DNA of 41,364 nt, taken from IMG/VR virus record IMGVR_UViG_2563366951_000005, positions 1 through 41,364 of that record; one strand, written 5' to 3'. Below the pieces are notes generated by a model that had not been told where the DNA came from, ran no database searches, and saw nothing but the letters and a program-made list of their open reading frames with translations. The translations under genes were made by a program, and so were the position numbers. The number at the start of each line of letters is the position of its first letter. The stretch's first letter is position 1. This stretch comes from a virus. Lineage: Duplodnaviria; Heunggongvirae; Uroviricota; Caudoviricetes. Below are positions 21,889 through 39,026 of the stretch, piece after piece.

Positions 21889-22134
21889 CTATTCAACAAG
21901 CTCTGCTGTAATTGTTAACCAGCTCAAATCAGGCCGATCATGCATCACATGTACAGCTGATTCATCAACATCGACAGCGTAAATTTTAGTGAAGGGATGG
22001 GAAGCTTTACCGGATAAAGAATCCTTCACTATCACACTTTCATTCTGAATAACCTGGAATGTGACGTTTGCGGCTCGAACAATACCCTCGTAGTGCTCTT
22101 CAAGGTGAGCAATTGTAACTTTAACTTTTTTCAT
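21889..22134 (-). CDS. hypothetical protein (81 aa)
   Basis: ATG at 22134 preceded by AAGGAG at 8 nt; tracked ORF extends 11 codons further without RBS. Confidence 0.55.
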   Translation of the reverse strand: MKKVKVTIAHLEEHYEGIVRAANVTFQVIQNESVIVKDSLSGKASHPFTKIYAVDVDESAVHVMHDRPDLSWLTITAELVE

Positions 22135-22241
22135 AGGCTGGCTCCTTGGCTGAATGGCAACAGGCATTAGGTGAGTGTCTGCTGTAACGCCTATCCCTTA
22201 GCGGGGATAATGGTTGCTTTATCCCTTGCTAGGGATAAAGA

Positions 22242-22757
22242 CTATTGACGCTCGCTCTCTATTTGACGAATTCCAGCGAAATTGTTATTGCCCTTTTCAA
22301 TCACGGCCAGCAGCGGCTTAATCCAGAGCACAGCCTGGCAGTACGTTATTGAGCCGGCGGCAGCGGTACTATCATCGGCTGCGTTAATTCCGTCGGTATC
22401 GGCGTGCATTGCGCTGGAACGTAAACGGTACGCGTATTCGAGCAGCCCACCAGCAATGTCAGCAGGAACAGGCAGATCACAGGTTTTTTCACGGCGGAGT
22501 ATCTCCCGGTATTCAATTACGGTTTCTTCGGTGCTGGTGTCGATCAGGGAGTTAAGCCTGTTGGCATGTTCTGCAACCTGATTGAATCGATTGAAGTTGA
22601 ATGCCTGGGTGGCGATCACCTGCCCCTGCATAGAGTTGTCACTTCGCAGAACGTCGTTATCGCTCTGTAGGCTACTGGCGTCGGAGCAGCTCTTAACGAG
22701 AGCGACGGAAAGGCCAGCAATAACGACAACGCCGATAAGACCCGGATTAATTTTCAT
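22242..22757 (-). CDS. Rz: spanin, Rz-like inner-membrane subunit
   Basis: N-terminal hydrophobic segment, position directly after the endolysin with ATGA overlap; an embedded Rz1 was not resolved. Confidence 0.7.
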   Translation of the reverse strand: MKINPGLIGVVVIAGLSVALVKSCSDASSLQSDNDVLRSDNSMQGQVIATQAFNFNRFNQVAEHANRLNSLIDTSTEETVIEYREILRREKTCDLPVPADIAGGLLEYAYRLRSSAMHADTDGINAADDSTAAAGSITYCQAVLWIKPLLAVIEKGNNNFAGIRQIESERQ

Positions 22758-23293
22758 TGGTCCAGCCCCCAGCACGCCAGCGCGCTTTCCTGGTCCCGTC
22801 GCTCAACCTGGCCATAGCAGCCATTCTTCTGGCCTTTGGTTAGACGACAATCACGGCCACCGTCTTTAATCCACCAGCGGATTGCCTCGCATGCACCGAT
22901 GCGGTCACCTGCGTTGATGCGCTTATAGAAGGTCGATGGGAAGCATTTACCGGGGCCGATGTTATACGGGCAGAAGGATGCGATACCCACCTTCTGAGGC
23001 TCTGTCAGAGGCACTTTGATATTGCGATCAACCCAGGCTAATGCCTTATCGCGTTCAATAGCGTTAACCTTCCGGCATTGTTCCTCAGTGGCCGTCATGC
23101 CTTTAACAACACGCCTGCCATCGATAACGGTCACGCCGTGACATAAAGACCAGACCCCACCCGGATCAACAACGGCCACCAGCGCATTGCCTTCTTTCTC
23201 GCTGATGAATTGGTCAAAAATGAGTGGAGCAGAAGCCCCTGACGCGATTAGCGCCAGCACTGCTACGCTGAGCTTTGCTTTGTTCGACATCAT
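22754..23293 (-). CDS. R: SAR endolysin (phage lysozyme with N-terminal signal-anchor-release domain)
   Basis: 179 aa; weakly hydrophobic Ala/Gly-rich N-terminus followed by E...D...catalytic region; P21-type architecture; follows pinholin. Confidence 0.8.
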
Positions 23294-23505
23294 TCACCTC
23301 GCGCAGCTTTGCGGCGATCCGCTTTGATTTGGAAGTACAGACTCGTTAACCACGTCAGCAAACCAAACATGAGGCTACCGAGCACACCAATGGCCGCCCA
23401 TTGAGATGGGGAGACTTTATCGAGGAGCTGAAGCAACCAGTATCCGGTCCCCCCACCCGATGCGCCGTATGCAATACCCGTCGTGATTTTTTCCATTCGA
23501 TACAT
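23290..23505 (-). CDS. S: pinholin (S21-like) with dual-start motif MYRM
   Basis: 71 aa, two TM segments, C-terminal [10 protein letters not shown] like phage 21 S as recalled. Confidence 0.85.
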
Positions 23506-23544
23506 GCTCTCACCTCGCTACGTTGCGGGTGTCCAGTTGAGGTA

Positions 23545-23570
23545 ATAAAAAGGGCCGCGATAGCGACCCA
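23545..23570 (-). terminator. intrinsic terminator between methyltransferase and holin genes
   Basis: Minus-strand GGGUCGC-UAUC-GCGGCCC followed by UUUUUAUU. Confidence 0.5.
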
Positions 23571-23575
23571 AGCTT

Positions 23576-24628
23576 TTATTCCCCTGCCAGCTGCCTTACC
23601 TCACTTACCGTCTGGTTGAAACGTTCCTCTTCCAGTTCTACGCCGATAGCCTGGCGGCCCAGTTCAATGGCTGCTTTAACAGTTGATCCCGAGCCCATAA
23701 AGAAATCAGCTACCACATCGCCGGGCCTGCTGCTGGCGTTGATGATTTGCCGCAACATATCAGCGGGCTTTTCGCACGGGTGTTTGCCTGGATAGAACTG
23801 GACGGGTTTATGTGTCCAGACGTCTGTATAGGGCACGGCTACTGTCACAGAGAAATGCCGCCGAAGAGATTTGTACTCTTCCAGCAGATCAAGGTATTTC
23901 CGGTTCAACGAATGCCATGTGGCCACCAGCTGGTGATGCGGTGCTTTGAGTTCAGAGGCGCGGTGCTTCTCAATGGCGATCTGAGTGAACAATTCCTGCA
24001 GCTTTTCGTAATCCTGCTCGTTTGGTAGTTGCCACTGACTGGTACCGAACCAGTGAGACGCCATATTTTTCTTTCCGGTGGCGTCAGCTATTTGCCTGGA
24101 CGTGACCCCCAGTTCGGCTCGTGCATCACGAAAGTAGGTGATTAACGGAGCCATGACGTGCTGTTTGACCTCGTTGCTTTTCTCAGCAAATCCGTCGCTT
24201 TTCGGATTATATGGCCCCTGATAATGCTCAGCGAAAAGGATGCGTTCCGTCGCGGGGAAGTAAGAGCGCAGGCTTTCTTTATTACAACCGTTCCAACGCC
24301 CTGATGGCTTCGCCCAGATAATGTGGTTCATAACGTTGAAGCGTTCACGCATCATGATCTCAATATCGGATGCAAGTCGGTGACCTGAAAACAAATACAG
24401 GCTGCCGGCAGGCTTAAGCACTCGCCAGAACTGGGCAAGACACATATCAAGCCATCGAAGATAGTCGGCGTCACCGTTCCACTGATTATCCCAGCCGTTC
24501 GGCTTCACCTTAAAATAAGGCGGATCCGTAACAATAAGGTCGATGGTGTTATCTGGGAGGGTAGCGAGGTATTGCAGGCAGTCAGCGTTGATAAGCTCAA
24601 CACTGTTTATATTTACAGTATTTTTCAT
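23576..24628 (-). CDS. DNA methyltransferase, beta-class N6-adenine/N4-cytosine type (DPPY then FMGSGST)
   Basis: 350 aa; motif IV LIVTDPPY near N-terminus and AdoMet motif FFMGSGST near C-terminus with an insertion of roughly 230 aa between them. Confidence 0.85.
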   Translation of the reverse strand: MKNTVNINSVELINADCLQYLATLPDNTIDLIVTDPPYFKVKPNGWDNQWNGDADYLRWLDMCLAQFWRVLKPAGSLYLFSGHRLASDIEIMMRERFNVMNHIIWAKPSGRWNGCNKESLRSYFPATERILFAEHYQGPYNPKSDGFAEKSNEVKQHVMAPLITYFRDARAELGVTSRQIADATGKKNMASHWFGTSQWQLPNEQDYEKLQELFTQIAIEKHRASELKAPHHQLVATWHSLNRKYLDLLEEYKSLRRHFSVTVAVPYTDVWTHKPVQFYPGKHPCEKPADMLRQIINASSRPGDVVADFFMGSGSTVKAAIELGRQAIGVELEEERFNQTVSEVRQLAGE

Positions 24629-24778
24629 AGATCCGTAAGCGTAACTCTGATAGGCTCACTATGCTTTTGCGCTAAAGCAGTGGGCCTTGGTTAGCTTGTG
24701 ACCTGAAAGCATGAGCTAATGGCTGGTTGGGTGCTACAACACCCACCAGCCGCCCATTTCCACAGCAGAATGCCCCCT

Positions 24779-24970
24779 TCAGTGGAGGCGTTTGTAACAT
24801 CCAAACTGGTAATCTGATAACCCCGCCATAACCAGCTGCGTCAGGATGAGCTGGCATTTCTCTCGGCTTAGGTGCGTATTCTGTGCAATTTCCCCAGCTG
24901 TCGCTGGTGAAGCGCTGAGTTCGTTAAAAACCGCTTTTGCTTCTTCTGTCATATAAGGTTGATTTTGCAT
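24779..24970 (-). CDS. small winged-helix/HTH-like protein (63 aa)
   Basis: ORF immediately downstream of the post-Q terminator; TAGEIAQNTHLSREKCQLILTQLVMAGL resembles an HTH; paralogous to ORF 36428-36682. Confidence 0.5.
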   Translation of the reverse strand: MQNQPYMTEEAKAVFNELSASPATAGEIAQNTHLSREKCQLILTQLVMAGLSDYQFGCYKRLH

Positions 24971-25049
24971 GCCTTTTCCCCTTTTTTATCGTGTGACACA
25001 CAGATAACTCTGGTTCATTTTTGCATCAAGCTTTAGATACAAAAGGCAT

Positions 25050-25072
25050 AAAAAAACCCCGCCGAGGCGAGG
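25050..25072 (-). terminator. tR'-like intrinsic terminator downstream of Q
   Basis: Minus strand CCUCGC-CUCG-GCGGGG + U7; located between Q and the late genes as lambda tR' is. Confidence 0.6.
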
Positions 25073-25081
25073 TTAGATATA

Positions 25082-25138
25082 ATTATGACAAAATATAAAA
25101 TTAGCTTCAAATATGGCTCATTTTGTTGCATTTTGCAA
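25082..25138 (-). promoter_or_regulatory. candidate late promoter pR' region (sigma70-like TTGCAA-17-CATATT or TTGAAG-17-CATAAT on minus strand)
   Basis: Hexamers read from sequence; which is used and where the Q-utilisation site lies is not determinable here. Confidence 0.35.
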
Positions 25139-25168
25139 GCCCATTTGAGGGAGTTAGTGAAAGTTACC

Positions 25169-25861
25169 TCACATTTCCGCCACTTTCAGTTCTTGGTACT
25201 CTTCGTACCGTGACAAAATTTCGCTTAGTGCCTGGCTATCCATTTCAGCAAACGACGCTTTGAAAGCCGCCCAGTGGCCTGAATACACTCTGAGCCAGGT
25301 GGAACGCTCAACGCTGACCATGCGCGCCAGAGCTGCACCAGCATACTCCTGATAGGTATCGTTATTACGCGAGGCAGCAACTTCTTGCGCCGCCAGCCAG
25401 ACAAGCCCTACCAGTTTTTTAGTGACGCGGCCCTGTATTTTTTTGCCGCTATGCTGACGCTGAAACTGTTCCCACACGTGCTGGCACATCAATGTCTGGT
25501 ACCGGAAAGTAAGGTCATACCCATAGCAGTACCGCACCCATGCCTGCAAATGCTCACCCAGACCATTGACCGAACGACGCCATGCTGAACAAGCGAACTC
25601 CGTATCTTTAATAGGCGGCAAAGGTCGACGACGGCTCCTTGTCTCAAGAACATAAAATGGAGTGGCCAGCGTTGTTACAACCTTTGACCCACAACCTTCC
25701 CCACCCTCCATGACGATTTCAGGATGGTGCCGGGGGTATTTATTCTTATCTGCTGGTGGATGCTCACTGAACGCCTGCAGCTGTCCTTTTGTCGATCCTG
25801 ATAAATCCGCCAGCGCGCGGCGCAGTTCAATCCGCGTATATTCCAGTTCTTGTAAATTCAT
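25169..25861 (-). CDS. Q: probable late antiterminator Q
   Basis: 230 aa from ATG at 25861; position immediately upstream of promoter/terminator and lysis module; family assignment from memory only. Confidence 0.6.
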   Translation of the reverse strand: MNLQELEYTRIELRRALADLSGSTKGQLQAFSEHPPADKNKYPRHHPEIVMEGGEGCGSKVVTTLATPFYVLETRSRRRPLPPIKDTEFACSAWRRSVNGLGEHLQAWVRYCYGYDLTFRYQTLMCQHVWEQFQRQHSGKKIQGRVTKKLVGLVWLAAQEVAASRNNDTYQEYAGAALARMVSVERSTWLRVYSGHWAAFKASFAEMDSQALSEILSRYEEYQELKVAEM

Positions 25862-25882
25862 TATGCTCAGCGCTCCATACAA

Positions 25883-26944
25883 TTACGCTTTTGTTATTAC
25901 GCCGATCGCCAGCGCTCGATTCATAAATCGGAATAGCAGCTCCAGCTGGGTACCGTGTTTTTTCTCGAACGCTGCAACATCAGCATGTAATTTGTCGTGA
26001 CACTCTCTGCACAGAGGGATCACGAACAAATCGTGGGCTTTAGTGGCGGTACCGCCCATGCCGTGACCAATGACATGGTGTGGATCATCCGCTGGCCGCC
26101 GGCAACCTTCACAGGGCTGGGTTTTAGCCCACCGGGTATAGTCCTCATTCACCCACCTGCGGTGTTTTGGGCGCAACATGAATGATTCAGGGGATTCAGG
26201 ATCCGCATGCAGAGCCAGAACCTGTGGCTGGTCATAGGCCACTTCCTGATTTGTTCCATGCTTTAAATGCGCAGCCGTGACCGCAGGGGTGACCTTCTTC
26301 TGCAAAATGTTTTTTGTCGGTGGCATCGGCACAATGTCACTTTCGCGATATACGGATAAAAACGGCTCATCCGGTAAGCGAAGCGCATGCTGGGCCATCC
26401 TTTCCGTGATTGCATCAGCAATGCCTGAGTAAACGGCCCACCAGCACAATTCACCGAGGGATAGTTCACGCTCGTTGTTGTAGCCAAGCGAAGACAGGAT
26501 AGAACTGATCAGCCAGTTAATGAGATTACGCCGGGCCAGTTCTGCCAGCGCCGCGGTGGTTTGCTCGCGCAGCTGGTTATCGCAATGCCAACAGAGCAAC
26601 ATTGATCCAGGGGGATGTCGCATCGTTACCAGCTCATGATGGTGATAATTAGTGTGCGGGTACTGGCATTCCTTCACGTTACGCTCTAGCCAGGATTCCA
26701 ACCCGGACAAACCGCCTGCTGCACGGATAACTCTCTCGTCGGTGAAGAATTCCTCGAGGGACTTATCTTCTGCCAGCGGCTGCCGGGCATCAGGGACGAG
26801 CCCCGACGGAAGCCCAGCCATGCTTTTTGGCTGAGGCTCCACCAGCACACGCCCCTGTTGAAACAAAGACATCAGTTCGCTACCCGGCTTTAACAGCACA
26901 AGCCCAAGGCGCGGAACAGTCTCGGCTGTAAACAGTCCTCTCAC
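25883..26944 (-). CDS. DUF968-like protein with C-terminal HNH-like Cys/His motif
   Basis: 353 aa; C-terminus CEGCRR...HHVIGHGMGG...CRECHDKLH; GTG start overlapping upstream stop. Confidence 0.65.
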   Translation of the reverse strand: MRGLFTAETVPRLGLVLLKPGSELMSLFQQGRVLVEPQPKSMAGLPSGLVPDARQPLAEDKSLEEFFTDERVIRAAGGLSGLESWLERNVKECQYPHTNYHHHELVTMRHPPGSMLLCWHCDNQLREQTTAALAELARRNLINWLISSILSSLGYNNERELSLGELCWWAVYSGIADAITERMAQHALRLPDEPFLSVYRESDIVPMPPTKNILQKKVTPAVTAAHLKHGTNQEVAYDQPQVLALHADPESPESFMLRPKHRRWVNEDYTRWAKTQPCEGCRRPADDPHHVIGHGMGGTATKAHDLFVIPLCRECHDKLHADVAAFEKKHGTQLELLFRFMNRALAIGVITKA

Positions 26945-27633
26945 GCGGCATGCCCCTTAGCGATGTGTGCCGTCCACAGGCCGCCGATCCACTCGATGCC
27001 TTTGGGTGTAAAACGTGCCTGGCTAAAGGCGTAGTTTGTTTCGCTCGTAGTGCCAGTTTTCACTTCAAACCGCCCGGCAGCAATGTGCTGGTGCCGAGGT
27101 GTCAGCACTCCACTGAGCCGGTACAAAATGCCGCTCTCAATGAGGAACAAGCGGAAATCGGTCTCTTTGGCCTGCAACAGCTTTGCCACCTGGCGGAAAG
27201 ACATTGAGCCTTTGGCAGTACAATATCGATCGACAAACTCAACTTTCGGCGCGGCAGCGGCTAACTGCTGGCTGAGTTGTTCTTTCTGCTCGGCCAGATC
27301 CGCGGCGAGACGTAATGCCTCCGGCAATGTTTGCGGGACACTTACGGCCTGGCTGTTCTCCAGCTCTTGCCAGCGATCGACAACAGCGGCGGTAAATTCT
27401 GGCGACAGCCTGGCGACGATCACCAGAGAATCACGTTTGTTAAACCAATACTCCTCGTAGGTTTGCCCGTTTTGCGGGTGTGTGTAGGGGGTGTGCGCCA
27501 ACGGCGCGGTTAAAATACCAGCAGATGCAAGGCGCTCAGCTGAGCGCTTCACATCACCATGTTTGCTCTGCACCAGCCTGGCAATTTCACGGCTGGACAT
27601 TGTCACAACACCCTTAGCGGTTAACTGATTCAT
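26941..27633 (-). CDS. antirepressor-like protein (Rha-type N-terminus, KilA-C/ANT-type C-terminus)
   Basis: 230 aa from ATG 27633 with RBS GGAGAAAT; domain call from sequence pattern recall. Confidence 0.6.
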   Translation of the reverse strand: MNQLTAKGVVTMSSREIARLVQSKHGDVKRSAERLASAGILTAPLAHTPYTHPQNGQTYEEYWFNKRDSLVIVARLSPEFTAAVVDRWQELENSQAVSVPQTLPEALRLAADLAEQKEQLSQQLAAAAPKVEFVDRYCTAKGSMSFRQVAKLLQAKETDFRLFLIESGILYRLSGVLTPRHQHIAAGRFEVKTGTTSETNYAFSQARFTPKGIEWIGGLWTAHIAKGHAA

Positions 27634-27647
27634 GCTATTTCTCCATA

Positions 27648-29585
27648 TCAGGCGGCTGCACCCGCCTTTTGATTTGCACATAATTCAGGAAGATTTGCTT
27701 CTACCAGCGCACGAGCGAACGGCGGCGGTACTGCGTTACCACAGCGCGCTACCTGCTTGTCTTTGGCGTAACGATTGCCGCGATAGTCCTGATCGATAAC
27801 GTAGCCGTCAGGGAAGCCCTGCGCCTTATAAAGCTCATGCGGTTGCAGCATGCGCATTCCGATATCGACGATCTGGTACTTAACCCCCTCGATCGTCACC
27901 AGCCATTCATCCTCGCTATCACCGCAGTAGGTTTCGAGGAATGTCCGGACCTCGCCAACGTGCTGGCCACCAGCGGTAATCGTCGGCATAGGTGTATCCA
28001 TGGTCTGACCGTCGCGGCAGGTTCCGCGCAGCTTCACCAGGTGCGACGCAACTACCGCGTGGTGATCAACAGTAGTGACTGAGTGGGCAGGCTCATCCAT
28101 ACCAACACCCGGCCCCGTGTAATTCCCACCATAGTGCTTCGCCAGGAACGCGCTCACCGTTGCAAACTTATTACCACCAGCAGTGACCGTGCCGAGCGGG
28201 TTATTCAGTTGAAGAACACGCGGTTCTTGCCCTGGGCGTTCGCCGTACCCCATCTGGATCAGTGTTGGAGTTACCAGCTGCGACTTACCGCCACCACCTG
28301 CAGTAATCGTCGCACTCGGTTCGTCAGCCCTGTGCCCAACACTGGCTCCAAACTGGCGGGCGATGACCGGCGCAACCACGCACGCGCGGGACTGCTTGAG
28401 GATTGTATGAGCGGGTTTATCCAGCGGGCGCGGCTTTGCCTGGTACTCACTGCCGCCATTGCCAGCCAGGAACGGTGTCAGGGCGGCCTCAACTACGCCA
28501 AGCGCATGCCCATTCCCGCCCGGGCGCGCCGACGTACCAGCGGTGACAGTTGGTACCGGCTCGGTCACTGGCTGCCCGGTGGCCCCGGTGCGGAATTTAG
28601 TAAGATGCGGTACCGCCAGTGCGTAGCCATGCTTTTTAGTGATGGTCTGCAATGGCTCTAACAACGATTGCCCGCGGAAACAGTCATAACCTCCTTTCGT
28701 CGTGGTGTGGTTACACTTCACGATGAAAGGTGATGCGCTTTCGATAACAAAGCGCTGGATGCCGCGCGCGATACGTTTGAGCGTATTTTCCGCCAGCGGC
28801 TTTTTGCGGTCGAAGATGGACCGGGCCGGGATATTCCAGTCAATGCACTCCGCCGCGGTACGCCATGGCGCCAGCTTGCCGCTTTGTACTTCCAGTGATT
28901 TTGGATCCCCATGAGTCGCTTCAGGCCAATGAATCTTGCGGCCGTCACAGCGCATGACCATGAAGAAACGCTTTCTGATCGTCGGCGCGCCGTAGTCACA
29001 TGCGCGCAGCTCCCGATAATCAACCTCATAACCAAGCCCGGCGATCAGCTGTTGCGCCTGCTGGCCGTGCGGCTCAATGGCAAGGAATTCACAAACCTCA
29101 GCCAGCGCAGGGTGATTCGCCGCGATCCCCGTCGACAGCATGCCGACAAATGCCTCGAATGTTTCGCCAGCACGCTCAGGATCCGGGCGTAATTCTTCAT
29201 CCAGCAGCGGGCCCCATGTCTTAAACTCTTCGACGTTCTCCAGCATCATGACGCGGGGACGTACTGCCAGCGCCCAGCGCAGGACAATCCACGCCAGCCC
29301 GCGAATCTCTTTCTTAACCGGCTTAGCGCCCTTCGCCTTGGAAAAGTGGCGGCAGTCAGGGCTAAACCAGGCCAGACCGACAGGTTTACCGCTGGTGGCT
29401 GCGCTTGGGTCAACGTCAAACACCGACTCGCAATAATGCAGCGTGTCAGGGTGATTCGTCTTATGCATCGCAATAGCGTTTTCGTCGTGGTTGATAGCGA
29501 TATCCACGCTACGCCCGATCGCCAGTTCAATGCCGGTACTCGCGCCGCCGCCACCAGCAAAGTTATCAACGATAATTTCACGCAT
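27648..29585 (-). CDS. DNA cytosine-5 methyltransferase with internally repeated variable region
   Basis: Motif I DNFAGGGGAS, motif IV-like FSPDCRHFS, ENV, C-terminal QxRxxGNAV; four repeats of P-x-T-[VI]-T-A-G-G modules in the middle. Confidence 0.85.
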   Translation of the reverse strand: MREIIVDNFAGGGGASTGIELAIGRSVDIAINHDENAIAMHKTNHPDTLHYCESVFDVDPSAATSGKPVGLAWFSPDCRHFSKAKGAKPVKKEIRGLAWIVLRWALAVRPRVMMLENVEEFKTWGPLLDEELRPDPERAGETFEAFVGMLSTGIAANHPALAEVCEFLAIEPHGQQAQQLIAGLGYEVDYRELRACDYGAPTIRKRFFMVMRCDGRKIHWPEATHGDPKSLEVQSGKLAPWRTAAECIDWNIPARSIFDRKKPLAENTLKRIARGIQRFVIESASPFIVKCNHTTTKGGYDCFRGQSLLEPLQTITKKHGYALAVPHLTKFRTGATGQPVTEPVPTVTAGTSARPGGNGHALGVVEAALTPFLAGNGGSEYQAKPRPLDKPAHTILKQSRACVVAPVIARQFGASVGHRADEPSATITAGGGGKSQLVTPTLIQMGYGERPGQEPRVLQLNNPLGTVTAGGNKFATVSAFLAKHYGGNYTGPGVGMDEPAHSVTTVDHHAVVASHLVKLRGTCRDGQTMDTPMPTITAGGQHVGEVRTFLETYCGDSEDEWLVTIEGVKYQIVDIGMRMLQPHELYKAQGFPDGYVIDQDYRGNRYAKDKQVARCGNAVPPPFARALVEANLPELCANQKAGAAA

Positions 29586-30912
29586 TGACGGCCCCCTGCA
29601 TGCTGTTGAAGAGACCACCAGCGGTCGTGATAATTTCACTCGTCGGCATACGTTCGAGCCACAGCTGGTTGATATTGGCTTTCAGCTTGTTCTGCTGCGA
29701 AACAGGTAGAGCGTCAGCCCCTTCAATCTGGTTAAACACCAGTCCAACCTCAAGAGGCCAAACGCGCGATTCGTTTAACGCCTTGTCCTTTGATTCCTGC
29801 GTCTCACGGACATGGGCGCGGATCCCCCGAATATTTGACCATTTGGCTTTATCCAGGCTTTCCATGGTCGCGATGAATTCACTGTGGTTAATGCCGTATT
29901 CTTTCGCAGACTCAACGGCAACCGTGCGTAACCGCTCTGACATGTCTTGTTTCACGTCATCGCTATCAAAGGGCAATGTTTCCAGCCATGCATTAACACC
30001 CACCAGGATGCTCTCGCTGATCAGCTTTTTCGCTCTGTCGATCGTCAGCGGTGAAACATTGGTAAATTCAGGGTTTTCCAGAGAGTCGGCAGCCCAGGTA
30101 TGACCAAACTTTGACTCGCTGAAGGTGTACTCGTCTTTCTCGCCGAACGCCGCGACAACACAGGCCCAAGCCTCTACACCGCTGGTTTCCAGAATGGCTT
30201 TTTGGGTTAATGGCAGTTCTGCCTCTGATTTCTTCGGCACTACCTCAGCGTCCAGCTCTGGCGCCGCATCAGTTTGCGTTCTTCCCACGGCAAATTGGGC
30301 CAGCGACATCGCAGCACGGCCTTTGGCCTCCAGGTCGGTGCGGTTGATGTAACTGAAACGCTCACCCCGCCATGTTTTGTCGAAGACCACGATAGCGCCA
30401 GCAAAAAATGCGCTGGTGGGCTGCTGCTTTTCGTCTTTCGGCACGAACCATGTAGGAAGATCGAAACCAATTCGGCCACGGATGAATGTGACGTGATCTG
30501 CCTCTTCCGGCCACCACGTTTCACTCGTCGCAGACTTAATGAGAAAAACGTACCGACCACCCTTTTCTCGCATGGCCATAGCGTGGTTAATGATGTGGGT
30601 CATTCCGGTAACGGCCTGCTTGTCGTGGTACTGAGAGCGGCTGTAAGGCGGGTTGCCAAACCCGGCACCACCGAGTTCTGCCAGCCGCTCTGACCAATCC
30701 TGCGTCAGGGCATTATCTTCAGCCGTGTACCATGCTGGGCACTTCGCGTTGCTGTCGTCGGCAAAAAGGTCCAACACCAGAGGGCCGAACATCGCATTGA
30801 TCCCCCAAAACAACAGATCCGGAGTGCGCCATTGATCACCGACCTCTTTCAACTCGTGTGCTGGTTTTGAACGGAGTTCAGCCAGTGCACGGCAGTATTT
30901 ATTTTCCATCAT
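29578..30912 (-). CDS. phage Dam-type N6-adenine DNA methyltransferase (NPPY) with ~260-aa C-terminal extension
   Basis: N-terminal ~180 aa with GFGNPPYS; ATGA overlap with upstream gene; C-terminal domain unassigned. Confidence 0.8.
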   Translation of the reverse strand: MMENKYCRALAELRSKPAHELKEVGDQWRTPDLLFWGINAMFGPLVLDLFADDSNAKCPAWYTAEDNALTQDWSERLAELGGAGFGNPPYSRSQYHDKQAVTGMTHIINHAMAMREKGGRYVFLIKSATSETWWPEEADHVTFIRGRIGFDLPTWFVPKDEKQQPTSAFFAGAIVVFDKTWRGERFSYINRTDLEAKGRAAMSLAQFAVGRTQTDAAPELDAEVVPKKSEAELPLTQKAILETSGVEAWACVVAAFGEKDEYTFSESKFGHTWAADSLENPEFTNVSPLTIDRAKKLISESILVGVNAWLETLPFDSDDVKQDMSERLRTVAVESAKEYGINHSEFIATMESLDKAKWSNIRGIRAHVRETQESKDKALNESRVWPLEVGLVFNQIEGADALPVSQQNKLKANINQLWLERMPTSEIITTAGGLFNSMQGAVNA

Positions 30913-31763
30913 CCTCTGAACCCCTCTGGAATCTTGCTATCAACCGGACCGAACTTCATCGGGTCATGTTTCTTTTCACCCCAGCTGTCACGCGGTGGCC
31001 GCCCCTTCTTGTCCCAGCGGATCCCGCTTTGCAGATAACCTTCAAATTTTTTCGGACCGAAGAGCGTTTCAGGACGCATGTACTGGTACTGCACGTCATT
31101 GCCGTTCCAGTGCTCATGCTTAAGGTCGATCACCAGCTGTAAGTCGCTAACGGTGTAACCTTCACGCAGACGAGCACGGATGTTTTCCAGAGAAGTTTTT
31201 GATTTTTGGTATCGTGAGCCACTAACCAGGTTCAGATGATTCAGAACCAGGATGGCGTTATCGGTGATCATCACTTCAGGGTCTGGTTGCGGCGCAACCG
31301 GACAAGAAGGTTTTTTAACTGATGGATCAGTAGTTGTATTTACTGACGGATCCCCCCCAGATTCTGACGGGTGAAAACCGCCTTTTTCATCGTTTTTTGA
31401 TGCCTCAGATTTTGACGCGTCTGTTTTTGAGGCATCAGATTTTGATGCGTCAGAATCTGACAGGTGAGAAAAGGCAGCAGCCTGCAATTTCGCAACATTG
31501 AGCTGGTAAACGTTCGATGCATTTCGGTTGCCTTTACGGCGCTGCTGGCGGGTTAACCAACCATCTTTTTCCAGCTGAGATATGGCTGTACGAACCGTGC
31601 TCTCACCAGCACCAATCTGGCGCGCGATGGTAGCGATGGAAGGCCAGCTAACCCCTTCATCACTGCTGAAGTCTGCCAGACGCGCCATGATGGCAACGCT
31701 GGATAACTTCATGCCTGACGAAGCGCATGCATCCCATACGTAACCGGTTAATTTAGTGCTCAT
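30909..31763 (-). CDS. replication initiation protein (N-terminal winged-helix domain, central SDASK repeats, conserved phage C-terminal domain)
   Basis: 284 aa; RBS AAGGA; architecture resembles lambdoid O-type initiators; contains DNA iteron-like repeats. Confidence 0.7.
   Translation of the reverse strand: MSTKLTGYVWDACASSGMKLSSVAIMARLADFSSDEGVSWPSIATIARQIGAGESTVRTAISQLEKDGWLTRQQRRKGNRNASNVYQLNVAKLQAAAFSHLSDSDASKSDASKTDASKSEASKNDEKGGFHPSESGGDPSVNTTTDPSVKKPSCPVAPQPDPEVMITDNAILVLNHLNLVSGSRYQKSKTSLENIRARLREGYTVSDLQLVIDLKHEHWNGNDVQYQYMRPETLFGPKKFEGYLQSGIRWDKKGRPPRDSWGEKKHDPMKFGPVDSKIPEGFRG
31339..31466. repeat. iteron-like direct repeats (consensus CAGAtTyTGAyGnGT) with T-tracts, candidate ori inside the initiator gene
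   Basis: Four to five copies at 31339, 31358, 31406, 31437 and 31451 read directly from sequence. Confidence 0.55.
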
Positions 31764-31772
31764 GGTCGTCCT

Positions 31773-32111
31773 TTAATTCTGTAAATTTACGCTGGAATTG
31801 TTCAAGAGGGCTGAAGCACTCATGATCGTACCCTTCGCGAAGGTATATAACGCGCTGTGTATCTGGCTCCCAGCGGACAACTCTGACGGGAACTCCGTAG
31901 TGATCTCTGAACCGCCGGTTAACTTCAGCCATTCCTCGCGCCCCTTCTCGTTCATCTGAACAAATGCTTCTACCATCAAGTCTGCTGGCTGGTAGTTGCC
32001 TCCATCAGCCGCGTTATTTATGATTTCCACATAGCCGAACTGGGCATCTTTACCCACCAGCGGCAAACATCTGAATTGCTTAGCTGGTCTGAATCGGTTT
32101 ACACTGTTCAT
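31773..32111 (-). CDS. hypothetical protein (112 aa)
   Basis: ORF with ATGA overlap to the upstream CII-like gene. Confidence 0.55.
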   Translation of the reverse strand: MNSVNRFRPAKQFRCLPLVGKDAQFGYVEIINNAADGGNYQPADLMVEAFVQMNEKGREEWLKLTGGSEITTEFPSELSAGSQIHSALYTFAKGTIMSASALLNNSSVNLQN

Positions 32112-32671
32112 GCGTTAGTTTCTCCACTGATACGACACGCCAAGGCGCCCGGAGCTGCACACTCGCGGGCGTCACCTTTTCTGCCTGTTGAAACGAATAC
32201 GTCAATCGCCTGATCTGAAACACCAACCCCATAAAGCGCCATAAATCCCAGGAACCCGTGAATCTGGTGGCGGAGCTTCTTACTGAATAATTCTGAAAGC
32301 GTTTTGCGCTCTGATGAATCAATTACCCCATCAGCCGCTGCTGCCATCTTGGCATTAGCCAGCTCACCAGATGCTGCTGCCGCTTTCATCTCAATGCTGT
32401 ACAGCTCAACGTTATCCAGGCTCTCAGCAGTTGGAACATCCACCAGCCATTTCCCTTTTCGGTTCGCCTGGTACTCGGCCAAGTAACAAGAACCAGACAG
32501 GTCCTCCATCCGTTCCAGTTCTGCCAAGGTAAAGAACCGACTGCCACACTTCTGGTACAGGTGGTTGTGGAACTGGTCGATAGTCATCCCTAAATCGGAA
32601 GCCATACCTAAGCGACCATGCTTGTGTGCCTTACACATCAGGCGGATTGCTGTATTTATGCTGTCTACCAT
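32108..32671 (-). CDS. CII-like regulatory protein (phage 186 CII/CP76-like)
   Basis: 187 aa from ATG 32671 with RBS GAGGGA; similarity to 186 CII judged from memory; position directly after cro. Confidence 0.5.
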   Translation of the reverse strand: MVDSINTAIRLMCKAHKHGRLGMASDLGMTIDQFHNHLYQKCGSRFFTLAELERMEDLSGSCYLAEYQANRKGKWLVDVPTAESLDNVELYSIEMKAAAASGELANAKMAAAADGVIDSSERKTLSELFSKKLRHQIHGFLGFMALYGVGVSDQAIDVFVSTGRKGDARECAAPGALACRISGETNA

Positions 32672-32702
32672 GTTGATTTCCCTCTGGTAGTTAATAATCA
32701 AC

Positions 32703-32960
32703 TTAAAGTTGACTATTGTTGTTAGCGGAAGGTATGCCGTCATTTTTGTTCGGATAAATATCAGGTCGTAATTGATGGGGAGTTACTACCCATCCGCCCC
32801 ATTGGCAGAGTTGAATAACTCTTTCAGAAGGTACTCGGTTCTTTGCAATCCAGTTCGCAACAGATTGAACTGATTGGAATTCAAACCGCCTTGATACCTC
32901 TGAAATCGACCCGATCGCCTTCACAGCTTTAGCTGTTACATTCTTGTGTTGAGATGACAT
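32703..32960 (-). CDS. cro: Cro-like repressor (YdaS/Cro family HTH)
   Basis: 85 aa from ATG 32960 with RBS AGGAGA; divergent from cI; HTH followed by RPD motif. Confidence 0.7.
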   Translation of the reverse strand: MSSQHKNVTAKAVKAIGSISEVSRRFEFQSVQSVANWIAKNRVPSERVIQLCQWGGWVVTPHQLRPDIYPNKNDGIPSANNNSQL

Positions 32961-32988
32961 GTGTTCTCCTATGACTAAGCCTGCATCA

Positions 32989-33017
32989 ATACTACTTATA
33001 GTAGCAATTATTAGCAA
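32989..33017 (-). promoter_or_regulatory. pR: -35 TTGCTA, 17-bp spacer containing operator palindrome CTACTATAAGTAG, -10 TAGTAT
   Basis: Read on minus strand; 22-nt leader to cro RBS. Confidence 0.6.
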
Positions 33018-33029
33018 CTTAAAATAGAA

Positions 33030-33749
33030 ATGACAACTATGCCTTGTGCGCTTAATCTTCTACTTATGGTGGAAAATGCTAAATACAAAGACTTTGCCGA
33101 AAGGCTAAACAGGTCTCTCCAAGAGCAATCTATTGGAGTTAAAGAATTGTCAGAGTTCAGTGGTGTCTCGTATGAGATGGCGCGGCGCTACACTCTTGGT
33201 ACTGCAAAGCCGAGAGATGAGAAGATGATTCGAATTGCAGAAAGACTTGCCGTCTCACCGGCTTATCTTGATTATGGTGTGCCTGTTAATGGTGGCGACG
33301 CGCCAGCCAAAGGCACGGTCAGAATAGAGCAATTGGATGTTCATGCTTCAGCCGGTTCCGGATATATAAACCAACCATTCCCTACAATAGTGAGCTCAAT
33401 AGAGATTCCAGAAGAGAGGATCTTCGAGTTGTTTGGTCGTAGAAGCCTTGATGGCATCGTCATGATAAATGTTGATGGCGATAGCATGATGCCCACGCTT
33501 TGCCCAAAGGACCTGCTTTTCATAGACAGCAAGGTTGAACAATTCAGCGGCGACGGCGTTTATGTGTTCAATTTTGAAGACAGTACGTTCGTTAAACGTT
33601 TGCAGAAGGTAAAAGGGCGCCGACTGGCAGTTCTTTCAGACAATGAACATTACCCGCCCTTCTTCATAGAGGAGCATGAAATGAATGAACTATACATATT
33701 CGGCAAGCTAATCAGATGCTTACCTCTAAAAATGATAGAGTTTGGCTAA
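33030..33749 (+). CDS. cI: CI repressor (HTH plus LexA/S24-type autocleavage domain)
   Basis: 239 aa; N-terminal HTH; C-terminal VDGDSMMPT with Ser and Lys dyad residues; start ambiguous (33030, 33039 or 33066), possibly leaderless. Confidence 0.9.
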   Translation: MTTMPCALNLLLMVENAKYKDFAERLNRSLQEQSIGVKELSEFSGVSYEMARRYTLGTAKPRDEKMIRIAERLAVSPAYLDYGVPVNGGDAPAKGTVRIEQLDVHASAGSGYINQPFPTIVSSIEIPEERIFELFGRRSLDGIVMINVDGDSMMPTLCPKDLLFIDSKVEQFSGDGVYVFNFEDSTFVKRLQKVKGRRLAVLSDNEHYPPFFIEEHEMNELYIFGKLIRCLPLKMIEFG

Positions 33750-34701: not shown

Positions 34702-35619
34702 ATGAATAATCCGTTTTTCAAAAATATGTTGGTGTATCGCATTAGTCGCGATTTCACCATCAACCAGGAAGAGCTGGAACAGCAGCTTGAACTATTTCGC
34801 TTCACTCCATGCGGTAGCCAGGATATGGCAAAAACCGGTTGGGTATCACCACTTGGTCAGCTGTCAGATCGCTTGCATCACACTGTCAATAATCAAGTGT
34901 TGTTGGTTATTCGCCGGGAAGAAAAAATACTGCCATCTCCTGTCATTACTGAAGAACTGCGCAAGCGTGTGTCGCGTCTGGAATCCGATCAGGGGCGTCG
35001 CCTCAAAAAAACTGAGAAAGATTCGCTGCGTGATGAAGTGTTGCACTCCCTGCTTCCTCGGGCGTTCTCCAAAAACTCGACTGTTGGTTTGTGGATCAAC
35101 GTCACCGACGGTCTGATCATGGTTGATGCAGCCAGCGCTAAACGTGCCGAAGACTCACTGGCCCTGCTTCGTAAAACTCTCGGTTCTCTCCCGGTGGTAC
35201 CGCTGACTATGGAAACGCCGATCGAACTAACTATGACCGACTGGGTTCGTTCCGGTAGTGCGCCTGCTGGCTTTGGCCTGGGTGATGAAGCCGAACTGAA
35301 AGCTATTCTTGAAGATGGCGGTATTGGACGCTTTAAAAAACAGACTCTGGTCAGTGACGAAATTCATGTGCATCTGGAAGCTGGCAAAGTAGTTACAAAG
35401 CTGTCTATCGACTGGCAACAGCGCATTCAGTTCGTTCTTTGCGATGACGGCAGCATCAAACGCCTTAAGTTCTCTAATGAGATTACAGAACAAAACGACG
35501 ATATCGACCGTGAGGATGCGGCTCAGCGGTTCGACGCTGACTTTGTTCTGATGACCGGCGAGCTTATCTCTCTCATTAACGGATTAACAACCTCTCTCGG
35601 CGGCGAAGCCAAGCGATAA
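34702..35619 (+). CDS. rdgC: recombination-associated protein RdgC homolog
   Basis: 305 aa; long blocks ([59 protein letters not shown]) match E. coli RdgC as recalled. Confidence 0.9.
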
Positions 35620-38453: not shown

Positions 38454-39026
38454 ATGAACGATTTAATGATTGACCTCGAATCAATGGGGAAAAAGCCAAA
38501 CGCGCCGATCGTCTCAATTGGTGCCGTCTTTTTTAACCCTCAAACAGGTGAACTTGGCCAAGAATTCTACACGGCCGTCTCGCTTGAAAGCGCAATGGCT
38601 CAAGGCGCGGTACCGGATGGAGATACAATTCTTTGGTGGCTAAAACAAAGCCCTGAGGCGCGCTCAGCTATTTGCGTTGATGATGCGATGCCTATCACTG
38701 ATGCACTGTCGGAACTTAGCCATTTCATTCACCGGCATGCATATAATCTCAAATACATGAAGGTCTGGGGTAACGGGGCCACCTTTGACAATGTGATTCT
38801 GCGCGGAGCTTACGAACGCGCCGGACGCATTTGCCCGTGGGAATTTTGGAACGATCATGATGTACGCACGATTGTTACCCTCGGTCGCAGTGTTGGTTTC
38901 GATCCGAAGCGTGACATGCCTTTCATTGGCGATGTTCATAACGCCCTGGCTGATGCGCGCCATCAGGCAAAATATGTGTCAGCAATTTGGCAGAAAATTA
39001 TCCCTGCCACCAGCACCAACGAGTAA
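38454..39026 (+). CDS. DEDD-type 3'-5' exonuclease
   Basis: 190 aa; N-terminal IDLESMG (Exo I D-x-E) and later acidic/His motifs consistent with DnaQ-like fold. Confidence 0.65.
   Translation: MNDLMIDLESMGKKPNAPIVSIGAVFFNPQTGELGQEFYTAVSLESAMAQGAVPDGDTILWWLKQSPEARSAICVDDAMPITDALSELSHFIHRHAYNLKYMKVWGNGATFDNVILRGAYERAGRICPWEFWNDHDVRTIVTLGRSVGFDPKRDMPFIGDVHNALADARHQAKYVSAIWQKIIPATSTNE

Follow-up and report, generated by a model that had tools for sequence, protein, structure and literature searches.

Three orphan DNA methyltransferases of known families encoded by a lambdoid Escherichia coli prophage

We analyzed a 41,364-nucleotide (nt) stretch of viral DNA (IMG/VR record IMGVR_UViG_2563366951_000005, positions 1 to 41,364), referred to here in its full length as the window, which is a lambdoid (lambda-like) Escherichia coli prophage. 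Its minus strand carries three DNA methyltransferase (MTase) genes, which we name by their open reading frames (ORFs): ORF A, an adenine MTase gene lying just before the holin gene; ORF B, encoding a large C5-cytosine MTase; and ORF C, encoding a second adenine MTase and lying directly upstream of ORF B. A previous reading of the DNA made without database searches (the sequence-only reading) had called three MTases of different classes at the coordinates given below, with no restriction endonuclease adjacent to them, and had proposed a layered anti-restriction or epigenetic toolkit with two enzymes expressed early and one late. The three ORFs lie at exactly those coordinates, and profile hidden Markov models assigned each protein to a family, ORF A to PF01555, ORF B to PF00145, and ORF C to PF05869 and TIGR01712, which bears out the three classes. 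We consider it likely that during lytic growth the three orphan MTases together methylate phage DNA very broadly, both the replicating and the packaged molecules, so that progeny would escape Type I-III restriction by the next host. Because the families of ORF A and ORF B methylate almost indiscriminately elsewhere, the trio fits anti-restriction methylation of progeny DNA; the similarity of ORF A to the non-specific M.EcoGII (76% identity) and the placement of ORF B in a family reported to have relaxed specificity both strengthen the anti-restriction reading. All three proteins are members of known enzyme families, and the finding is real but ordinary.

ORF A (23576-24628, minus strand) encodes a 350-amino-acid (aa) beta-class N6-adenine MTase of the M.EcoGII family. 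The PF01555 (N6_N4_Mtase) match (E = 4e-43) covers aa 29-340, and the motif order of the beta class is present, with DPPY at aa 35 (nt 24515-24526), then the target recognition domain (TRD), then FMGSG (an FxGxG motif) at aa 310. M.EcoGII and M.EcoGI, from a prophage of E. coli O104:H4 C227-11, resemble ORF A in length (349 versus 350 aa), in the DPPY-TRD-FxGxG order, and in being prophage-borne and orphan. Compared with M.EcoGII over 348 aa (full length), the 76% identity rises to 82% in aa 1-114 and falls to 72% in the TRD stretch (aa 115-270). Identity to the reconstructed ancestor Anc289 was 85%, with the M.EcoGII and ancestor reference sequences machine-read from the supplement of PMC11551740, and homologs in Stx2-converting phages were 77-78% identical. 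M.EcoGII is a characterized non-specific adenine MTase that can modify as many as 99% of adenines in vitro and blocks many restriction enzymes, and neither it nor M.EcoGI is expressed in its own lysogen, constitutive M.EcoGII being deleterious (PMC5778455). Reconstructed ancestors of the M.EcoGII cluster, Anc289 included, were all active on DNA and RNA, with non-specificity shown on RNA for M.EcoGII, Anc291, and SUPREM (PMC11551740). ORF A differs from M.EcoGII in 24% of its residues and in 28% of those in the TRD stretch.

ORF B (27648-29585, minus strand) encodes a large phage C5-cytosine MTase (PF00145, E = 2e-20) of 645 aa from its ATG. A longer GTG-start frame extends to 29639; because homologs and the RefSeq protein begin MREIIVDNF, the ATG start taken by the sequence-only reading is correct. 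The protein contains FAGGGG (aa 9), PDC with Cys78, ENV (aa 116), RKR (aa 204), QGFP (aa 589), and GNAV (aa 616), and the key residues of motifs I, IV (PDC, Cys78), VI, VIII, IX, and X were invariant in 121 homologs. Motif IV reads P-D-C, in which Asp takes the alignment position of the Pro normally found before the Cys, and this variant occurs family-wide. The family is large, comprising 2589 cluster representatives at E <= 1e-30, with members in phages of Vibrio, Ralstonia, Pseudomonas, Paracoccus, Rhizobium, Caulobacter, Myxococcus, Gordonia, Mycobacterium, and others, and the cluster of nearly identical ORF B proteins alone holds 1680 member sequences from Enterobacteriaceae assemblies. 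Phage m5C (5-methylcytosine) MTases of about 700 aa, such as these, are described as widespread in alpha- and gammaproteobacterial phages (PMC5537653).

The link from ORF B to enzymes of measured activity runs through Pyei1_p05 of Paracoccus phage vB_PyeM_Pyei1, to which ORF B is 43% identical end to end, including its array of repeat modules (E = 3e-167). Pyei1_p05 is reported to be about 69% identical to the assayed proteins JCM7686_0772 and JCM7686_2655 (PMC6536676), and large phage m5C MTases of the JCM7686_0772 type, from a Paracoccus aminophilus prophage, are reported to have shown relaxed specificity in experiments (PMC3925955, PMC5537653). The identity of the assayed JCM7686 proteins to ORF B is thus known only indirectly, by way of the value of about 69% stated in that paper. 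Pyei1_p05 shares with ORF B the PDC form of motif IV and the P-x-x-T-(I/V)-T modules (eight in Pyei1_p05 versus seven in ORF B), and both are orphan and phage-borne. They differ in that their hosts belong to different classes and in that the Paracoccus gene lies near the integrase, whereas ORF B adjoins the replication gene rep.

The variable region of ORF B (27909-28673, minus strand; aa 305-559) consists of seven modules in tandem, each 32-48 aa long and organized around P-x-x-(T/S)-(I/V/L)-(T/L). All seven copies of this motif fall within the region and none elsewhere in the protein; 0.23 were expected, and at least seven occurred in 0 of 20,000 shuffles. Close homologs (78-99% identity) carry six to nine copies through clean insertions or deletions of whole modules, and the modules gained or lost among four of them (P0002, P0040, P0043, and P0017) are 32-39 aa long; the P0040 type (605 aa), for instance, is missing module 5, and the P0002 type (680 aa) has one module more. 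Across 112 diverse representatives of the family, the motif count ranged from two to nine and tracked the length of the region (r = 0.66). Since orthologous modules can be recognized one by one in the enzymes from E. coli and Paracoccus, the array is old and not a recent duplication.

This organization recalls the multispecific C5-MTases of the Bacillus phages SPR, phi3T, rho11s, and SPbeta. In those temperate-phage enzymes, several TRDs are arrayed in one polypeptide (PMC12707154). ORF B likewise combines one catalytic core with a variable region of contiguous short modules, its relatives differ by the gain and loss of whole modules, and both groups are temperate-phage orphan enzymes with a presumed anti-restriction role against multiple systems. 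The likeness is one of architecture, and the Paracoccus relatives of ORF B differ from the Bacillus enzymes in giving partial, relaxed protection and not discrete, fully protected sites. A profile of nine repeat modules gave only chance matches against the PDB (E >= 2), and in a comparison with solved MTase structures the last 147 aa of ORF B matched DNMT1 over motifs IX-X only; the link between the modules and known TRDs is therefore a resemblance only. An AlphaFold2 (AF2) model built with the 121 homologs had a predicted local distance difference test (pLDDT) score of about 20 across aa 243-617, too low for a structural reading of the repeats.

ORF C (29578-30912, minus strand) encodes a 444-aa N6-adenine MTase of the phage "Dam" type found in T1, HP1, and VT2. 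The MTase domain (30283-30912, minus strand; aa 1-210) matched PF05869 with E = 2e-43 (148.5 bits versus a cutoff of 28.1) and the NCBIfam equivalog TIGR01712, "phage N-6-adenine-methyltransferase" (204.9 bits versus a cutoff of 97.05). This model of the phage T1/HP1 Dam and M.EcoVT2Dam family aligns end to end with the N-terminal 210 aa, including NPPY at aa 87 (nt 30643-30654), and N87, P88, P89, and Y90 were invariant in 93 homologs. The sequence-only reading had called ORF C a Dam-type NPPY adenine MTase; the NPPY adenine MTase part of that description stands, while the protein belongs to the small phage T1/HP1/VT2 family and not to that of E. coli Dam. Over aa 1-203, ORF C is 73% identical to the product of SfV dam; its identity to the VT2-Sakai orf32 protein, a PF05869 MTase of 175 aa that is also encoded in the nin region, is only 31%. 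M.EcoVT2Dam is reported to target GATC (PMC6602927), and our guess, the weakest of those offered here on specificity given the 31% identity, is that ORF C would target GATC like this characterized enterobacterial member. Small alphaproteobacterial phage adenine MTases with an NPPW/F/Y motif target GANTC (PMC5537653), so if they belong to the same family as ORF C, family membership does not fix specificity. A literature search on the specificity of SfV Dam found nothing. The non-specific enzymes Hia5 and Hin1523 were considered as PF05869 relatives of ORF C and rejected as such, since they are Dam-related with FxGxG and with DPPY at about residue 194 (PMC3299994).

Beyond the MTase domain, ORF C has a C-terminal extension (29581-30210, minus strand; aa 235-444) made up of an insert domain (approximately aa 235-375) and a conserved tail of about 65 aa. 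The VT2 (175-aa) and SfV (217-aa) proteins are without this extra helical extension of about 230 aa. AF2 modeled the extension confidently, with a pLDDT of 73-92 for most of it and 63-68 around aa 371-390; the model had no fold match in the PDB. A sequence search with the extension alone returned only PF05869 MTases or fragments and so revealed no informative domain shuffling. The last 65 or so residues are kept even in homologs of about 295 aa. Every tail-bearing form that we examined (E. coli, Enterobacter, and Citrobacter phage phiNP) is encoded directly upstream of, and overlapping, a large C5 MTase gene, and the tail-less SfV enzyme has no large C5 MTase gene as a neighbor. A partner-docking role for the tail is possible. 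A more ambitious picture would join this tail to the ORF B array: the array would consist of independently acting, exchangeable target-recognition modules (seven here and six to nine in close relatives) whose repertoire is reprogrammed by module gain and loss, which would make the family a Gram-negative counterpart of the Bacillus multispecific C5-MTases, and the ORF C tail would dock to ORF B to form a coupled m6A/m5C (N6-methyladenine/5-methylcytosine) complex at the replication fork. We regard this combined picture as improbable.

Two side observations concern records of ORF C homologs. In some assemblies, chimeric proteins (P0172 and P0121) join the ORF C frame to ORF B sequence, probably as a result of deletions or frameshifts across the 8-nt overlap between the two genes. 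In many phage records, such as phage Eeyore (9793-11127) and Chi-like Salmonella phages, ORF C homologs are labeled "phosphoadenosine phosphosulfate reductase." This label appears to stem from phrog_33262, a profile of which only positions 283-490 match ORF C, and is probably an annotation artifact.

The order of genes and sites on the minus strand is a pR-like promoter, cro-like, cII-like, rep, ORF C, ORF B, Ant/Rha, DUF968, Q, a pR'/tR'-like pair, a 63-aa ORF, ORF A, a hairpin with a T-run, holin, lysozyme, and an Rz-like gene; the promoters and terminators named here are matches from consensus scans only. The pR-like early promoter (33007-33036, minus strand; TTGTCA-18-AATAAT, 10/12) lies upstream of cro, cII, rep, ORF C, and ORF B, and terminator-like sites on the same strand between it and Q were weak, with a regional total not above that of shuffles. 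The rep gene (30909-31763, minus strand) encodes a replication-initiation-type protein with Pfam matches to Phg_2220_C and HTH_36. Reading of the junction sequence placed its stop in a 4-nt overlap (ATGA) with the ORF C start, and the ORF C stop in turn overlaps the ORF B start by 8 nt. Downstream follow Ant/Rha (26941-27681, minus strand), the DUF968 gene with its HNH-like Cys/His motif (25883-26944, minus strand), and, directly after DUF968, the antiterminator gene Q (25169-25882, minus strand; PF06323, E = 5e-41). After Q come a pR'-like promoter (25082-25110, minus strand; TTGAAG-17-CATAAT with an upstream TG) and, directly behind it, a tR'-like hairpin and T-run (25055-25074, minus strand). 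This site, past the end of Q and ahead of the late genes, appears to match the lambdoid late-promoter layout. A terminator-like GC hairpin with a T-run (23552-23569, minus strand; seven pairs, six of them G-C) begins 7 nt past the ORF A stop, before holin. Because ORF A directly follows Q and the pR'/tR'-like pair and immediately precedes holin, it is presumably a late, Q-dependent gene, and such a position would suit an enzyme too toxic for earlier expression. The proposal of two early enzymes and one late enzyme thus fits the gene anatomy, with ORF C and ORF B after rep and ORF A after Q.

From this layout, we propose that pR drives ORF C and ORF B along with the replication genes and that the two, translationally coupled, would act on replicating DNA. 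ORF A would be transcribed late, only after antitermination by Q, and would act before packaging. Dependence on Q would confine this toxic, indiscriminate adenine methylase to a cell about to lyse, and under CI repression in the lysogen all three MTases would be silent. Anti-restriction by promiscuous orphan MTases that come on at induction is textbook knowledge. According to a review (PMC12707154), temperate phages that are induced produce semi-specific orphan MTases with a protective role.

In keeping with the orphan status of the three enzymes, no restriction endonuclease was detected in the early and regulatory regions scanned, and the left arm, which includes CI, RdgC, an exoribonuclease-like gene, and integrase, encodes no nuclease of restriction-endonuclease type. 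None of the five non-MTase neighbors scanned (Ant, DUF968, the 63-aa ORF, rep, and the ORF at 31773-32111) matched a PADLOC defense model, and the stronger PADLOC matches of the MTases themselves were, for all three, to generic Type II MTase models. The MTase genes are flanked by rep, Ant/Rha, DUF968, Q, and holin, and not by the adjacent cognate endonuclease of a Type II restriction-modification (R-M) system. In the regions covered by gene annotation, PADLOC, and the left-arm inspection, the absence of an adjacent restriction endonuclease noted in the sequence-only reading was confirmed.

Several points weigh against broad anti-restriction methylation. Specificity is extrapolated at 76% identity for ORF A, at 43% plus the literature-stated link of about 69% for ORF B, and at 31% for ORF C, and the M.EcoGII reference sequence used for ORF A may hold a few minor errors. 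The consensus scan that gave the pR'-like site found three promoter-like sites, compared with 1.9 expected in shuffles. Heavy m6A and m5C methylation should sensitize DNA to Type IV systems such as Mrr and McrBC, and the net benefit would therefore depend on the host. A Sinorhizobium homolog of ORF B that shares 44% identity with the Paracoccus enzymes showed no activity in E. coli (PMC5537653). The Paracoccus enzymes themselves protected only partially, so that a benefit against restriction is unproven.

The sole rival that keeps appreciable weight, although we think it unlikely to be the principal explanation, is that the MTases, above all ORF C and ORF B, mainly serve the phage life cycle, whether by marking origins of replication or sites of packaging, by helping the phage to evade SeqA or MutH, or by setting the timing of gene expression. 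Phage P1 provides a precedent, as its Dmt is needed for pac cleavage. Others have speculated that MTases encoded in replication modules act in replication control (PMC5537653), and a possible regulatory role in viral cycles has been noted for many orphan MTases of phages, with P1 dmt cited as an example (PMC12707154). The placement of ORF C and ORF B, which directly follow the replication-initiator gene and are coupled to it, is as expected for such a role, and close ORF C homologs, with or without the insert domain, always lie beside rep. However, a C5 MTase of relaxed specificity and a non-specific adenine MTase are poorly suited to site-specific regulation, and the E. coli host supplies Dam itself. 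In addition, GATC was only mildly under-represented in the window (161 observed versus 201 expected), with no avoidance or clustering of note. A life-cycle role is also compatible with the anti-restriction role, so that accepting the one would not require giving up the other.

We consider lysogenic conversion, with at least one of the MTases made by the prophage and changing host gene expression epigenetically, quite improbable. Prophage MTases that alter host phenotype are documented in other species, for example in the mosaic phi11 prophage of community-associated methicillin-resistant Staphylococcus aureus (PMC12435837), and the terminator-like hairpins that flank ORF A are moron-like. All three genes, however, lie in operons that the CI-type repressor (33030-33749, on the other arm) should shut off, and the only promoter found directly upstream of ORF A was the pR'-like site, which is itself followed by a terminator. 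The silence of M.EcoGI and M.EcoGII in their own lysogen and the deleterious effect of constitutive M.EcoGII (PMC5778455) likewise argue against expression of ORF A during lysogeny.

Decay of one or more of the genes into an inactive remnant is even less probable. The PDC of ORF B motif IV departs from the canonical P-C dipeptide, and the inactivity of the Sinorhizobium homolog in E. coli (PMC5537653) could be taken the same way, but PDC is invariant in the 121 homologs and present in Pyei1_p05, which has active close relatives. Each of the three ORFs has its full length, and the same genes occur in the genomes of the isolated phages Eeyore, LLS, Flotzy, and phiNP. Because the catalytic and S-adenosylmethionine (AdoMet) cofactor motifs are intact and their key residues invariant in the homologs of ORF B (121) and ORF C (93), the motif degeneracy that would have overturned the anti-restriction proposal was not seen.

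Least probable of all is that the MTases form the modification half of an R-M or other defense system with an overlooked nuclease, such as the DUF968 protein: its HNH-like Cys/His motif, a weak HNHc_6 match (E = 0.003, below the Pfam cutoff), its place in PHROG 96 (labeled "HNH endonuclease"), and sub-family matches of ORF B to the DruM and DrmMII methylase models favor this idea, but we rejected DUF968 as a hidden restriction enzyme because it has no PADLOC match, lies at a nin-region position right ahead of Q, and is retained in the relative H29, which lacks the C5 MTase, and other Druantia or DISARM components were not found in the regions scanned. Labels for the DUF968 protein vary among phage records, from "HNH endonuclease" (Eeyore) to "antitermination protein Q_2" (phiNP).

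The three-MTase arrangement is not unusual, and the trio is already annotated in public genomes. Positions 22000-33000 were 100% identical to GenBank KM389288.1 (Escherichia phage Phi06_2987 S) and 94-99% identical to prophages of eight complete E. coli genomes and to the isolated phages Eeyore, LLS, and Flotzy; a literature search on KM389288 and Phi06_2987 found nothing relevant. Our gene calls agree with the RefSeq annotation of an E. coli prophage that is 99.1% identical, in which all three genes are named methyltransferases. At approximately 70-77% nucleotide identity, Citrobacter phage phiNP carries rep, a PF05869 MTase, a C5 MTase, DUF968, Q, a hypothetical gene, an M.EcoGII-like MTase, and holin, and Enterobacter prophages share the early part (rep-Dam-C5-(RusA)-Ant-DUF968-Q). 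The order rep-Dam-C5 MTase-(Ant)-DUF968-Q-MTase-holin is thus already annotated in RefSeq E. coli, in phiNP, and in isolated coliphages such as Eeyore. In megablast searches of 5426 complete E. coli genomes, ORF A-like DNA was found in 63, ORF B-like DNA in 13, and ORF C-like DNA in 15. Earlier work likewise reports a prophage that encodes three MTases (PMC5537653).

If the activities proposed here hold, virion DNA would be methylated at most adenines and many cytosines, a broad passport against Type I-III restriction in Enterobacteriaceae. Such methylation would be relevant to the prediction of phage host range, the engineering of phages for therapy, and horizontal gene transfer. Enzymes of these families may also serve as reagents, the ORF B type as relaxed m5C writers, and M.EcoGII is already used for footprinting. 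Conceptually, nothing here is new, and only the modular repeat array of ORF B and the ORF C tail are mildly intriguing; their structural interest lies in how the repeat region of big C5 MTases sets specificity and in the role of the helical appendage of ORF C.

Further features were noted around ORF A and in the left arm. The 63-aa ORF (24779-24970, minus strand), located after the tR'-like terminator and ahead of ORF A, is conserved and annotated as hypothetical in RefSeq, with weak winged-helix Pfam matches to DprA_WH (E = 1.4e-4) and TrmB (E = 6.6e-4), both below cutoffs. Two terminator-like GC hairpins with T-runs bracket this ORF and ORF A as a moron-like cassette, and the slot that the cassette occupies between Q and the lysis genes is the slot of stx in phage VT2-Sakai. 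No tRNA genes of the kind found there in Stx phages were present between Q and the lysis genes, nor in the whole window. The early-left arm encodes, besides integrase, an RdgC-family protein (34702-35619, plus strand; E = 2e-115) and a protein with an Rv2179c-like 3'-5' exoribonuclease domain (38454-39026, plus strand; E = 2.5e-72). Finally, CTAG was strongly under-represented in the window, with 6 sites observed versus 32 expected.

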